Assembly: GCF_000172995.2 (NCBI RefSeq)
Contig: NC_014729.1
Span: 1,170,001 to 1,202,000 of the forward strand
From: Halogeometricum borinquense DSM 11551
Lineage (GTDB): Archaea; Halobacteriota; Halobacteria; Halobacteriales; Haloferacaceae
Length of the DNA stretch: 32,000 nt
Direction of reading: 5' to 3'
Part shown: piece after piece, positions 22,424 to 32,000 of the stretch
How the letters are laid out: each line of letters begins with the position of its first letter
How positions within the stretch are numbered: position 1 is the stretch's first letter
Notes under the pieces: generated by a model
The model's input: only the letters and a program-made list of their open reading frames with translations
What the model was told of the DNA's origin: nothing
Database searches by the model: none
Translations under genes and position numbers: made by a program

Positions 22424-22498
22424 GCTCGGTTGGTGTAGTCCGGCCAATCATCTTGGCCTTTCGAGCCGAGGACAGGGGTTCAAATCCCCTACCGAGCA
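22424..22498 (+). tRNA. tRNA-Glu (anticodon TTC)
   Basis: Acceptor GCTCGGT/ACCGAGC, the archaeal Glu-type D arm GGTGTAGTCCGGCCAATCAT, anticodon stem TTGGC/GCCGA with loop CTTTCGA, and T arm AGGGG-TTCAAAT-CCCCT. Total 75 nt. Confidence 0.9.
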
Positions 22499-22509
22499 CT
22501 CCATTCTAC

Positions 22510-22673
22510 CGCCGTCTTGCGTTTTTGAGCCGTGAATAGAGCAATGATAGCCAATGTTTCAGGCCAAGTCGAAAACCAAGACTCGCTTACCCCGACGCCG
22601 TCTTGCGATTAGCGGTTTTGTCTCGCCCAGTCGATTCAAAGGACTGGCCAAATACGTGCGAACCGCAAGACGG
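22510..22673. repeat. three copies of a CCGTCTTGCG motif between tRNA-Glu and the integrase
   Basis: CGCCGTCTTGCG occurs at 22510-22521 and 22596-22607 as direct copies. An inverted copy CCGCAAGACGG lies at 22663-22673, just upstream of integrase ATG 22685. Confidence 0.5.
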
Positions 22674-22684
22674 AGGCACGTCTG

Positions 22685-28786: not shown

Positions 28787-28821
28787 GACTGACAGCATGA
28801 CTTCCCGACTGACAGCACGAC
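28787..28821. repeat. tandem 15-nt repeats GACTGACAGCA(T/C)GAC
   Basis: Copies at 28787-28801 and 28807-28821 match at 14 of 15 positions with a 20-nt period. They lie 91-125 nt upstream of ATG 28696. Confidence 0.5.
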
Positions 28822-28979
28822 CATATCGCACCTAGTGTTAGATTACCGGCTATTTGGGCGTGTGAAGTGCTGCGAACCACCCAGACTACCGCGCGCGGGC
28901 CGGCTGGCACTGACTGAATCTGCAATGATTTCTTTGTAAGTCAGGTACGGACCTTGACTCCAGCCACAAGCCGACAAAA

Positions 28980-31900
28980 CTATTCTTCTGACCTAGGACC
29001 AACGCTGAAGGAGTCCGGTGCACAGGGCAGTTGGTTGTGTTGACACCACTGGCAATGCTCGTCAGCGCTGTACCGGTTGAACGAGAATTCCGAAATACGG
29101 GTCATGGACTCCGTCACGTCGTCCGTGACTGCTTCTAGGTCAGCATCGCTGAACGTCCGCGTTTCGACTTTCGGCCCGATTTCGCCAACGTACGCGTACC
29201 CAGCGCGCGTCACTGGCTCGTCGTACAGGTCACAGCACGCCAACAGATAGATCGGGAGTTGCTTATCGTCCTCCAGGTCTCGGTGGCGCTCGGTGGCCTT
29301 GTAGTCGATGACGAGGAGCCCATCGTCCGGCGTCCGGTAGACTGCGTCAATATAGCCGACGAGTTCGTGCCCATCAATATCGAGTTCGAACTCCCGCTCC
29401 GCGTCGATGATCTCGCAATTGGGGAGCTCTAACTCGAAGTACCGGTCGATGCACTCCTTCGCCGCCGTGAGTGCATCTTCAGCGCGGCGGTGACTGGCGA
29501 GACGCTCGCAGATCTCGTACCAGTCCCCACGGCGTTTCACGCCTTGCTTCGCGGCTTGTTCTGCGGTGTCGTGGAACAGCAATCCGATTTCACGTTGTGA
29601 TACACCGCCCCCGGAATCGCTTCTGACTGTGGTCTCCTGATAGTCGGGGAATGCGTTGACCACGTAGTCCAGGTAGTGACTCCGTGGGCATTCTTCGTAG
29701 GCAGCCAGTGACGTGTAGCTGTGCGAAAGCGATGGTGACGGTGTCGACGGGTCGGTCAGCGACGCAACCTGGAGTGTCTCCCGCTCAGCTCTCGGGGAGA
29801 GCTCTCCGTTGAGGGTGGCTGTTGCAAGGTCTAGCACGCGGTCGCGCGCCGCCGCGACTGCGAGTTCTTCCCCGGCGTGATTGACGGTCCCGCCAACGTG
29901 CCCGACTGTCTCGGTGGCCAGTGTGTCCGTCCAGTCTACCGCCTCTCTCGGGAGACAGTCTTGAACGTCGGCCCAGAGGGGGAGCTGTCCTCGCTCCGGT
30001 TGCCATGGGATTCGGGACGGGAGAATTTCGTCAACGGATTCTGAAACGGGGTGTACGTCCGTAGCATCGTCGTCTTCGCTGCCGCCCTGGAGGACGAGGA
30101 CATCTTCGGCGCGCGTGATGCCGACGTGGAACACGCGACGGGTTTCACGGGCGTCACGCTCGACGAAGTCCTCGGCAAACGCCGCCTCTGCGCCGTCTGA
30201 AAGGCTGGTTTCGAGCGCGTCGTAGGTGCGTGAACTCGGTGCCCACTCGCCCGCTGTGACTTGCGGGATGAGGACGACTGGGAAGTCAAGGCCCTTGCTC
30301 TTGTGGATAGTCATCACGTTGACCGCGTCGTCGGCGACATCCGGCTGACTCGTCGGGGACGAGCCGCTCTCGTCGAACAGAGAGTCGTAGTGTTCGAGCG
30401 AGTCGATGAACTCCGGGGTGAGCGGTGGTTGAACAGCGCTGTCTCCGTACTGTTCGATGACATCCTCCAGCTGGGCGAGATCCCGACGTTCCTGCTCGCT
30501 GAGATACCACTCGATATTCGTGACGTCTGTGAGCTCGCGGTACAGATGACTGAGCGACGCTGAATCTCGGATAGCGAGGAGTTCCGTGACGTGTTTACGG
30601 GCCTCCGCGACGCGGTCTGGCTCCTCGAACTCGTCGAGTGGCGTCTCGCGGAGCGTGTCCACGAGCGGGTCATCGCCCGCGTTGAGCTTGCGGAGGTCTG
30701 TATCGCAGAGCCGGTACCGCATCAGGAGGACGCGATTCCAGCTCACCTCGTCTTCGGGGCGTGCGAGTGCCTTTAGGTAGGCGGTCACGGTGCCGACACC
30801 AACGGATTCCGTGGCCAGATCCCCTGCAACCTGGTACGGGATGCCAGCGTCTTCGAATTCCTCGATGACTGGTGTCGCGTGGTCGTTTTTCCGGACGAGT
30901 AACGCGATGTCGCCCGGGTCGTACGCCTCATCGAAACTCTCTGCTGCCCCGCTCAGCAAGTTCTGCACGACGGTACGAAGCTGAGAAGCACCGTCCGCAT
31001 CGTCCTCATCCGACAGCTCGACGGTAGCGATGGTGTCCCCATCGTACTCGGGTTCGTCGACGCGCTTCAGTGTCTTGTGACGTTCCCGGTGATCGAGTTT
31101 CTGAATCGCCTCGTTCGCCAAGTCCAGGATCGGCTGCCGAGAGCGGAAATTCTCCTCTAAGGGTTCGTCGGAGAGTGCCGCGAATGCGCGGTCGAGTTCA
31201 TCAGTGATGTTGGCGACGTGCGCGCCGCGCCACTCGTAGATCGCCTGATCGTCGTCACCCACGACGAACAGGTTGTCGTCAGTGACGAGTGACTTGACGA
31301 GGTCGAACTGCAGGCGGTCGGTGTCCTGAAACTCGTCACAGAACACGTAGTCCCACCGAGCAGCGATTTCCTCCCCGACCGGCGACTCCATCAGCTCGGC
31401 CGCCTCTACAACTAGACCGTCGAAGTCGATGAGATTCCGCTCATCGAGTTCCCGCTCGTACGCGGCGTATCCGGCCGTCAGGTCACGGGCCGTCAGACAG
31501 TCCGAGAGGAACGAGTCGAGATGATCCGTGAGCTCAAGATCAAGGTCACCAGGGATTCCTTTCGGCGCACCGTTCGCGTACCCACCGAGTAGATACTTCG
31601 GGAGCTTGTACGCGTTGTCCGGCAGGTCCCGGTCGCCCGCCTCGTGGGCTTCAAACGCCGCTTCTAGCGCATCGCAAAGATCCACCAAGCGGTCGAGGAA
31701 ATCGCGTACACTGGCCTCCATTCCGTCCATCCCCAACACATCACGTTCTTCAACGAGGTCAGCACGGACGTCTGGGAGCGAGTCCAGCACGCTCGACACG
31801 GACCGGCCGCCCAGATGGTCACTGGCAATCGCCTCGACGCGCTCCGAGAGGTCGGCGAGTTCGTAGACACGGTCAGCAGGACCGAGGAACGCGTCGATAT

Positions 31901-32000
31901 CGTCGGGCGTGATGCCGCTGCGTTTCATCGATCCGATGAAGTTGAGCAACTTCGATGCGGCCCCTGACGCGTACCCATCAGAGCCGTACACGTTGGGTTT
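28980..32000 (-). CDS. UvrD/REP-type SF1 helicase fused to a Cas4/AddB-like Fe-S PD-(D/E)XK nuclease, 5'-partial
   Basis: Helicase motifs are II DEFQD, III VGDDDQAIYEWRGA, IV NFRSRQ, V TIHKSKGLDFPVV and VI VGITRAED. The C-terminal nuclease carries GYIDAV, VIDYK and QLPIY, with Cys768 plus C980-x2-C983-x6-C990 in track numbering. The Walker A motif is absent, and the frame is open to the window edge (the track start at 31991 is a GTG). Confidence 0.9.
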   Translation of the reverse strand, partial: KPNVYGSDGYASGAASKLLNFIGSMKRSGITPDDIDAFLGPADRVYELADLSERVEAIASDHLGGRSVSSVLDSLPDVRADLVEERDVLGMDGMEASVRDFLDRLVDLCDALEAAFEAHEAGDRDLPDNAYKLPKYLLGGYANGAPKGIPGDLDLELTDHLDSFLSDCLTARDLTAGYAAYERELDERNLIDFDGLVVEAAELMESPVGEEIAARWDYVFCDEFQDTDRLQFDLVKSLVTDDNLFVVGDDDQAIYEWRGAHVANITDELDRAFAALSDEPLEENFRSRQPILDLANEAIQKLDHRERHKTLKRVDEPEYDGDTIATVELSDEDDADGASQLRTVVQNLLSGAAESFDEAYDPGDIALLVRKNDHATPVIEEFEDAGIPYQVAGDLATESVGVGTVTAYLKALARPEDEVSWNRVLLMRYRLCDTDLRKLNAGDDPLVDTLRETPLDEFEEPDRVAEARKHVTELLAIRDSASLSHLYRELTDVTNIEWYLSEQERRDLAQLEDVIEQYGDSAVQPPLTPEFIDSLEHYDSLFDESGSSPTSQPDVADDAVNVMTIHKSKGLDFPVVLIPQVTAGEWAPSSRTYDALETSLSDGAEAAFAEDFVERDARETRRVFHVGITRAEDVLVLQGGSEDDDATDVHPVSESVDEILPSRIPWQPERGQLPLWADVQDCLPREAVDWTDTLATETVGHVGGTVNHAGEELAVAAARDRVLDLATATLNGELSPRAERETLQVASLTDPSTPSPSLSHSYTSLAAYEECPRSHYLDYVVNAFPDYQETTVRSDSGGGVSQREIGLLFHDTAEQAAKQGVKRRGDWYEICERLASHRRAEDALTAAKECIDRYFELELPNCEIIDAEREFELDIDGHELVGYIDAVYRTPDDGLLVIDYKATERHRDLEDDKQLPIYLLACCDLYDEPVTRAGYAYVGEIGPKVETRTFSDADLEAVTDDVTESMTRISEFSFNRYSADEHCQWCQHNQLPCAPDSFSVGPRSEE

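Follow-up and report, generated by a model that had tools for sequence, protein, structure and literature searches.

Genomic islands and proviruses that are anchored at tRNA genes are common in haloarchaea. We describe here an element at such a gene in Halogeometricum borinquense DSM 11551, which begins within a 32,000-nucleotide (nt) stretch of contig NC_014729.1 (positions 1,170,001 to 1,202,000 of the forward strand, analysed here as a whole and called 'the window'). We are confident that window positions 22455-32000 constitute the left end of a large genomic island, which occupies the 3' part of a tRNA-Glu(UUC) gene. The window ends inside a helicase-nuclease gene; the DNA past it was read from contig AOHT01000010.1 (GCA_000337855.1), on which window position 1 corresponds to record position 176,717, and from Logan assemblies of four read sets, and coordinates beyond 32000 are given as window-equivalent positions.

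Several described systems provide a frame for this locus. The SNJ2-type pleolipovirus system is said, after work by Wang et al. in 2018, to integrate into a tRNA gene of the haloarchaeal chromosome. Badel et al. 2021 (PMC8371274) list in their Table 1 a single 'Halobacteriales' enzyme of demonstrated activity, the SNJ2 integrase, which they class as 'Classical' and whose family they describe as having a SAM-like N-terminal domain. The same paper delimits an HSTV2-like family (membership: identity of at least 25-30% across 60% or more of the length), which is restricted to Halobacteria, has PF00589 as its sole domain, and has no member in that table of archaeal integrases with demonstrated activity. 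Proviruses of the Hafunaviridae are 59-78 kb long, with attachment (att) cores of 18-45 nt in tRNA genes (Liu et al. 2021, PMC8651126, S7 Table). Finally, long prokaryotic Argonautes (pAgos) are associated with PLD, Cas4 and UvrD/PD-(D/E)XK proteins (Ryazansky 2018, PMC6299218).

The tRNA-Glu(UUC) gene that is the integration target (22424-22499, + strand; called by ARAGORN, and by Rfam as RF00005 at 54 bits) is still intact after integration, and it stands at the island boundary with the start of the first integrase gene, int1, 186 nt downstream. On its other side a fadB-like gene ends at 22354; RimK-like and HhH-GPD genes lie further to the left, and a succinate dehydrogenase operon farther still. 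Evidence that DNA has been inserted at this gene was derived from its relatives. A genome scan with a 35-mer of the tRNA-Glu 3' end yielded 31 loci (from Haloferacaceae, Haladaptatus, Haloarchaeobius and others, the source genome not being among them), and in most of these fadB lies directly upstream of tRNA-Glu; an identical tRNA lies beside fadB at nine metagenome loci as well. In the closest relative, Halogeometricum limi (FadB 84.5% identical), tRNA-Glu is followed by genes for DUF7344, DsbB and cryptochrome DASH, with no integrase. The same series, or part of it, follows tRNA-Glu at ten other scanned loci (L012, L015, L017, L021, L023, L026, L029, L031, L035 and L036), and the Halogeometricum-like metagenome contigs L059 and L060 have it too, again with no integrase. 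None of the DUF7344, DsbB and cryptochrome DASH genes is found in the window, and a search with the H. limi cryptochrome as query had no H. borinquense orthologue among its returns. To judge from this gene order, the fadB-tRNA-Glu-DUF7344-DsbB-cryptochrome loci are empty orthologous sites.

Alignment across the junction locates the insertion to the nucleotide: upstream of tRNA-Glu the window matches the empty Halogeometricum sites, and from the first base past tRNA-Glu it aligns instead with an occupied site in Haloferax massiliensis, the switch falling at 22499/22500. A change of homology exactly at the 3' end of a tRNA is, as a pattern in aligned DNA, the classical signature of site-specific insertion. 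An earlier reading of the window, made without database searches (the sequence-only reading), had proposed a mobile element integrated at tRNA-Glu(UUC), and the empty sites, the junction switch and the Int1 homologues at the same tRNA described below all support that proposal. Its further claims for this end of the element also stand: the core-like gene run does end with the fadB-like gene, just before tRNA-Glu; the two integrases it saw 3' of the tRNA are Int1 and Int2, both of which match PF00589; and the comparison with relatives that it recommended has returned empty sites in H. limi, in L059/L060 and at about ten further loci.

Int1 (22685-23788, + strand; 367 residues; PF00589, E=3e-15) and Int2 (23887-25005, - strand; 372 residues) are encoded by convergent genes. 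When a phage collection was searched by tblastn with Int1, the matches were to tailed viruses and environmental 'Halophage' records only, with no pleolipovirus. Foremost among them is the XerCD integrase of Halorubrum sodomense tailed virus 2 (HSTV-2), which is 50.8% identical to Int1 over 100% of the length; the integrases of HRTV-2, HRTV-11, HCTV-6, HCTV-15 and HRTV-7 are about 50% identical. The int1 gene is a complete open reading frame (ORF), and its product aligns end to end with the viral homologue, keeping R216, K244, R320, H342 and Y351; the first His of the catalytic set is Tyr in all six aligned members. Int2 shares 35% identity with Int1 and, over 95% of the length, 31.7% with the HSTV-2 integrase; its catalytic set is kept except for Gln in place of the last His (H342 of Int1). 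For both proteins PF00589 is the sole Pfam match, and neither matches a SAM-like N-terminal domain. On these identities and domain matches, we place Int1 and Int2 in the HSTV2-like family of archaeal tyrosine recombinases. A sequence search of the PDB with Int1 gave no match; among viral contigs, Int1 had no confirmed relative and a 29-nt pattern from the tRNA 3' end had 0 matches.

Three other genera have a homologue of Int1 immediately 3' of tRNA-Glu(UUC) and oriented in the same way: it is present in Haloferax massiliensis (L032; 86% identical), Natrinema thermotolerans (L040; 63%) and Haladaptatus salinisoli (L030; 59%, truncated). In H. massiliensis, the Int1 homologue is also paired with a homologue of Int2 (71%). 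The left-end spacer that separates tRNA-Glu from int1 (22500-22684, + strand), which provides the tRNA-Glu trailer and its T-run, is conserved in H. massiliensis and, in part, in H. salinisoli and N. thermotolerans. It contains three copies of the motif CGCCGTCTTGCG, at 22510-22521 (+), 22596-22607 (+) and 22664-22675 (-, with one mismatch); three of the four matches to this motif in the entire window are thereby found in a single 166-nt stretch of spacer, and we regard these repeats as candidate integrase arm or operator sites. Upstream of int in HSTV-2 there is a partial tRNA 3' segment, then 11 nt, and then CCGCCGTCTTGCGATTTTT, in the same register as window positions 22477-22527; ARAGORN calls no whole tRNA in this HSTV-2 sequence. 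From this shared layout of tRNA segment, motif and int, it follows that the left end of the island is a hafunavirus-type attP-int module (attP being the att site of the element itself).

A 44-nt attL core can be inferred from the manner in which assemblies break at this locus: it corresponds to tRNA positions 32-75, i.e., from the 5' strand of the anticodon stem to the end of the acceptor stem (22455-22498, + strand). The Logan assemblies are de Bruijn graphs with k=31, for which break points are expected at the edges of repeats. In two of these assemblies the left-flank contigs stop at 22484, and in three the island contigs begin at 22469 (for ERR481281, as calculated from the length of its contig); with k=31, this pair of breaks implies that an exact repeat spanning 22455-22498 exists elsewhere in the genome. 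The second 44-nt copy in H. borinquense is therefore inferred from contig breaks in four assemblies, rather than seen; if the island was inserted as we propose, its sequence at the right att site (attR) should be GGCCTTTCGAGCCGAGGACAGGGGTTCAAATCCCCTACCGAGC. In N. thermotolerans, the 44 nt of tRNA positions 32-75 recur exactly, as a direct repeat, about 60.6 kb downstream of tRNA-Glu.

We hypothesize that a circular form, with an attP that contains a copy of tRNA-Glu positions 32-75, would recombine with the chromosomal tRNA gene. Strand exchange would be the usual tyrosine-recombinase reaction, with Y351 as nucleophile, and the outcome would be an intact tRNA rebuilt at attL, with a 44-nt partial copy left at a distant attR. 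Because the integrase gene is not split, this process would be of the 'classical' type and not of the SSV ('suicidal') type, in which int is divided by attP: Int1 is complete at 367 residues.

As to the right end, a search of the window for the tRNA 3' segment (exact, with up to 3 mismatches, and by k-mers of at least 11 nt) gave one match only, with no second copy and no shared 11-mer downstream, and there is no internal att copy from 22.5 kb to window-equivalent 50,274. We conclude firmly that the island is at least 27.8 kb long, with its right end past 50,274. This agrees with the sequence-only reading, which had found no second tRNA 3' copy in the window and had set the right boundary beyond 32000. 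The downstream search for a tRNA-Glu repeat that it advised gave no copy in the DNA up to 50,274; the 44-nt repeat is indicated by the assembly breaks and seen in N. thermotolerans. A metagenome scan with the 44-mer gave nine matches, all nine of them full tRNA genes, and no attR-type junction. The 73,561-nt contig ERR481281_7 begins at the same att break (22469); since a unitig is unable to cross the 44-nt repeat, attR must in that sample be at least that contig's 73,561 nt away. If the other end of the contig is the repeat itself, it is possible that attR lies near window-equivalent 96,000, for an island of about 73.5 kb.

One earlier candidate for attR, at about 48.0 kb, where the 25.5-kb contig SRR9434877_121 ends, was rejected: ERR481281_7 reads through this point, with no att copy up to 50,274. 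At 48008 (L054 position 1; about 2267 in L053), SRR9434877_121 ends inside the gene for a 410-residue protein, and ERR481281_7 continues; strain polymorphism, an insertion sequence (IS) or a coverage gap could account for this end.

The fadB-tRNA-Glu junction is a recurrent integration hotspot. In many genera, including Natrinema, we observed an exact 21-24-nt direct copy of the tRNA-Glu 3' end (positions 54-77) at a distance of 100-190 nt past the gene; each has, ahead of it, the T-arm in inverted copy (GGGGATTTGAA), and both co-vary with the host tRNA. Such copies occur at L029 2756-2885, L023 7576-7442, L015 5466-5310 and L017 4035-3919, and further at L026 6334-6225, L024 6246-6363, L037 1812-1689 and L041 40338-40471; L023 appears to hold tandem units. 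We take these copies as probable scars left by earlier integrations at the hotspot. In two metagenome sequences (L047 2851-2920, and L049), what follows tRNA-Glu (TTCTACCGCCTGTTTTCAGCCGTGGAG...) resembles the left-end spacer of the island; there is no Int1 homologue within the next 1.8 kb, and these may be a remnant of a related element.

What the island carries was read gene by gene. Beyond int2 lie a small ORF, orf64 (25356-25550, +), annotated as a gene in public assemblies; a 756-residue Eco57I-like N6-adenine DNA methyltransferase (25617-27887, -; Pfam Eco57I and N6_Mtase, PADLOC MTase_II at E=4e-31); and two further small ORFs, orf88 (27920-28186, -), with a blastn homologue in H. massiliensis, and orf104 (28382-28696, -), a gene call in the assemblies that is conserved downstream of the helicase. 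No family match was obtained for orf64 and orf88 in profile searches. The window closes with the C-terminal 1006 codons of an AddA-like UvrD helicase fused to a PD-(D/E)XK nuclease (28980-32000, -; Pfam, NCBIfam/PADLOC), a protein of 1152 residues in full that starts at 32438. This helicase-nuclease is the last gene of a five-gene operon (L001, L053, L054), the others being, in order of transcription, a long pAgo of 895 residues (37587-40274, -; PADLOC, 1091 bits), a PLD-like protein (35403-37523, -), a 686-residue UvrD/AddB-like protein (33337-35397, -) and a Cas4-like nuclease (32435-33340, -). Past pAgo, up to 50,274, there follow a DUF4143 ATPase, a 1674-residue TmtA-like (Tiamat) protein, the 410-residue protein mentioned above and an Mrr-like nuclease. 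The PADLOC and Pfam matches over this region comprise MTase_II, pAgo, Cas4-like, GajB/UvrD-like, PLD-like, a PDC-S01-like ATPase, TmtA (E=2e-67) and Mrr_cat. Going by these profiles, several unrelated defence systems are clustered here, as is typical of a defence island, and every identifiable gene in the visible 27.8 kb is of the defence type. Of the proteins in these 27.8 kb that were put through Pfam, NCBIfam or PADLOC scans, none was a VirB4/TraG-type ATPase or relaxase; in this visible part the island does not have the makings of an integrative conjugative element.

The Argonaute operon is also found elsewhere. Its DNA is 83% identical on the Haloferax alexandrinus plasmid pBNX82-1, where it lies beside an unrelated integrase, and the operon together with the DUF4143 ATPase is present in Haloarchaeobius salinus and Halalkaliarchaeum desulfuricum. 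In H. salinus of the genus Haloarchaeobius, the helicase is followed by a 104-residue gene and then by an Eco57I-like methyltransferase, in the same order as in the island. The block in common between this genome and H. borinquense thus runs DUF4143 ATPase, pAgo, PLD-like, 686-residue, Cas4-like, AddA-like, 104-residue, Eco57I-like methyltransferase. The methyltransferase is in addition 43% identical to one that adjoins the same helicase on plasmid phalar01 (block and adjacency together: L057 8066-22679; L053; L051 11180-17449). It may be no orphan but a partner in Argonaute function. The phalar01 integrase that lies beside this helicase and methyltransferase was considered as possible kin of Int2, and proved not to be related. 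In the island's pAgo, the motifs GLDV, HRDG and YYAD look, by eye, as though the catalytic PIWI tetrad were intact. With the 99-residue pAgo C-terminus as query, a protein search returned two metagenome fragments only; the full-length pAgo search used the plasmid homologue as query.

Base composition divides the island. The G+C content at third codon positions (GC3) is 0.51-0.62 for Int2 (0.62), orf64, the methyltransferase and orf88 (about 23.8-29.0 kb), versus 0.70-0.85 in ten flanking core genes; Int1 and the helicase, both at 0.74, are host-like. The sequence-only reading had described a drop in GC content 3' of the tRNA, and had called for proper GC and codon-usage profiles. The drop is real, as is the deviant GC3 from Int2 to orf88, and it is confined to some 5 kb, with Int1, the helicase and the remainder of the Argonaute operon resembling the host. 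The cargo, which it had called typical of mobile DNA, consists of defence-type genes. In H. massiliensis, a DNA homologue of orf88 lies directly after Int1, inverted (blastn, 71% over 297 nt), and Int2 is 3 kb beyond, with other genes between. Gene order in H. massiliensis and the foreign codon usage of the low-GC3 Int2-to-orf88 segment point to a mosaic island. The Argonaute operon, for its part, resembles the host in composition, and it circulates on haloarchaeal megaplasmids as well.

These observations raise the possibility, which we entertain seriously though tentatively, that the island grew by composite accretion: a backbone of Int1 and attP would have received a nested insertion at a later time (Int2, orf64, the methyltransferase and orf88), with defence cassettes of separate origin (the Argonaute operon and the Tiamat-like and Mrr-like genes) stacked at this one hotspot. 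This explanation is compatible with insertion at tRNA-Glu as we propose it, and alters what, if anything, can still move. In its favour, low GC3 is restricted to the Int2-to-orf88 segment, as compared to 0.72-0.83 for Int1 and the Argonaute operon; orf88 and Int2 are differently spaced after Int1 in H. massiliensis, as noted; the Argonaute operon resides next to unrelated integrases on pBNX82-1 and phalar01; and tandem att scars at tRNA-Glu in many genera indicate that the site is used repeatedly. On the other hand, neither an att copy nor a scar occurs inside the island between 22.5 and 50.3 kb, its low-GC segment is not bordered by direct repeats, and the Int1/Int2 pair is conserved in a second genus. 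Furthermore, the methyltransferase and orf104 travel with the Argonaute operon in Haloarchaeobius salinus too, so that the methyltransferase is not simply part of an Int2 element.

The kinship of Int1 with viral integrases suggests a second alternative, namely that the island is a decayed provirus of a hafunavirus-like tailed virus, of which attP and int would survive, the virion genes having disappeared and the defence genes having arrived afterwards. The integrases of HSTV-2, HRTV-2, HRTV-11, HCTV-6 and HCTV-15 share 50-51% identity with Int1, and the attP-int layout is shared too; the proviruses of this family, at 59-78 kb, have tRNA genes as targets and att cores as long as 45 nt (PMC8651126); and one contig suggests an island of about 73.5 kb. 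We nevertheless consider it unlikely. PHROGs searches of the window proteins, and the genes examined from 22.5 to 50.3 kb, gave no match to a capsid, portal, terminase or tail protein, and the virion and replication hallmark genes that characterize a Hafunaviridae provirus are absent from that interval. If the island is 73.5 kb long, 27.8 kb of non-viral DNA within it leave too little room for a 60-77-kb virus. Ten ORFs sampled from the N. thermotolerans element likewise include no capsid, portal or terminase match, the only structural match being a weak one to a tail tape measure (E=2.7e-4).

Returning to the island as a large element inserted by Int1, we draw together here the observations that weigh against it. 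Its attR has not been observed in the DNA read, i.e., up to 50,274, and the prediction of an attR near 96 kb is weak, since the same kind of argument failed at 48.0 kb. Excision, a circular form and integrase activity are predicted only. Int1 and most of the cargo are host-like in composition, so the insertion either happened long ago or stemmed from a close relative. An identical 895-residue pAgo is on record from two contigs of more than 1 Mb, a draft contig and four read-set assemblies. One of the pAgo records bears the H. borinquense locus tag GL213_06515, which we presume to belong to a strain other than the type strain; if that guess is correct, the island is, in this part at least, common to more than one strain of the species. 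In view of these records, the island may be fixed in the species rather than currently mobile.

In its strongest form, this argument makes the island an immobile remnant: Int1 inserted it, attR was lost, the second 44-nt copy derives from another locus, and the region is now fixed species-wide. We doubt this version of events. The unobserved attR, the largely host-like composition, the two megabase-sized contigs with identical pAgo and the frequency of short att scars at tRNA-Glu in relatives would all be in keeping with it. Opposed to these are an intact Int1 with all of its catalytic residues, and the implied second copy of exactly tRNA positions 32-75, which is what an attR looks like and has the same extent as the attR in N. 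thermotolerans; the scars, at 21-24 nt, are too short to break an assembly graph with k=31. There is also a slim chance that the island is to archaea what a phage satellite is to bacteria: non-viral and loaded with defence genes, it would keep its hafunavirus-type attP-int module and depend for excision and spread on infecting tailed haloviruses, not on itself. In the part of the island that was read, no genes for packaging or for exploiting a helper were identified. Ancestral DNA that was deleted in the relatives, with no insertion at all, we regard as exceedingly improbable: the comparison does rest on presence/absence patterns, but the sites are empty in at least 11 genomes plus metagenome lineages across several genera, the breakpoint is exactly at the tRNA end with an integrase adjoining it, a homologous left end lies within different flanking DNA in a different genus, and independent precise deletions at the tRNA 3' end would be required in every relative.

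Two other features of the window lie outside the island. Rfam detects a third tRNA at 11782-11880 (- strand; 43.5 bits, 99 nt), missed by ARAGORN in bacterial mode; at 99 nt, it probably contains an intron. A second GC dip (0.54-0.56) occurs at 4500-7000, around tRNA-Thr (5351-5424). Genes for a GNAT acetyltransferase, a DICT-domain protein and an AAA_33 kinase-like protein are close by, but none for an integrase, so that nothing points to a second island there.

Our results provide a concrete and testable att site for the HSTV2 integrase family, namely positions 32-75 of tRNA-Glu(UUC), accompanied 11 nt past the tRNA end by the conserved motif CGCCGTCTTGCG, and find the same virus-type integration module with non-viral defence cargo in at least three haloarchaeal genera. 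They also mark fadB-tRNA-Glu as a recurrent integration hotspot, and place a complete five-gene Argonaute operon on an integrative island; its presence both there and on megaplasmids helps to account for the dispersal of such operons in haloarchaea. None of this alters what is generally understood of tRNA-anchored islands. A literature search for H. borinquense together with Argonaute, or with integrase and tRNA-Glu, found no description of this island.

A close comparison is with an element of about 60.6 kb at tRNA-Glu(UUC) of Natrinema thermotolerans A29, not annotated as such (CP031304.1, record positions 174,605-235,336). Like the H. borinquense island, it has an Int1 homologue (63%) in the same orientation 3' of tRNA-Glu(UUC) and a 44-nt repeat of positions 32-75, and its sampled genes are mostly hypothetical or defence-like. 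Unlike our island, its host is in Natrialbaceae, no Int2 paralogue or Argonaute operon was seen in it, and its attR lies between a D-arm-like tRNA remnant, on the near side, and a further 22-nt copy beyond. This attR (L041 40228-40337; CP031304.1 at about 235,227-235,336) consists of exact tRNA positions 5-28, a 38-nt insert and positions 32-75; its 5' acceptor strand is unpaired and ARAGORN calls no tRNA. The copy is a tRNA-like relic carried by the element. The CP031304.1 record, named 'plasmid unnamed6' (987 kb; L040 77-17534), carries gyrA, gyrB, proteasome subunits and topoisomerase VI, and looks like part of a main chromosome.

Hafunaviridae proviruses share with the island the integrase family (Int1 is 51% identical to that of HSTV-2), a tRNA target, an integrase beside the att site and a long att core (18-45 nt as listed, 44 nt here), and HSTV-2 shares the layout of partial tRNA, CGCCGTCTTGCG and int. 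In contrast, the 27.8 kb of island that were read contain no virion or replication genes and carry defence cargo. The sole tRNA-Glu provirus in PMC8651126, that of Haloplanus salinus, has its 44-nt core in the 5' half of another tRNA-Glu sequence, whereas the island uses the 3' 44 nt. The SNJ2 system differs in having an integrase of another family, Int1 and Int2 matching PF00589 only. As in described pAgo defence islands (Makarova 2009; PMC6299218), pAgo is found here with PLD-like, Cas4-like and UvrD plus PD-(D/E)XK proteins among defence genes on mobile DNA; unlike in those, the operon sits on a tRNA-anchored island with a virus-type integrase, and an Eco57I-like methyltransferase and a 104-residue gene lie directly downstream of it in two genomes. 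The island is therefore of the tRNA-anchored kind that is already well known; what is modestly new is the att site at positions 32-75 of tRNA-Glu(UUC), the motif in common with HSTV-2, and the virus-type module on a defence island that carries an Argonaute.

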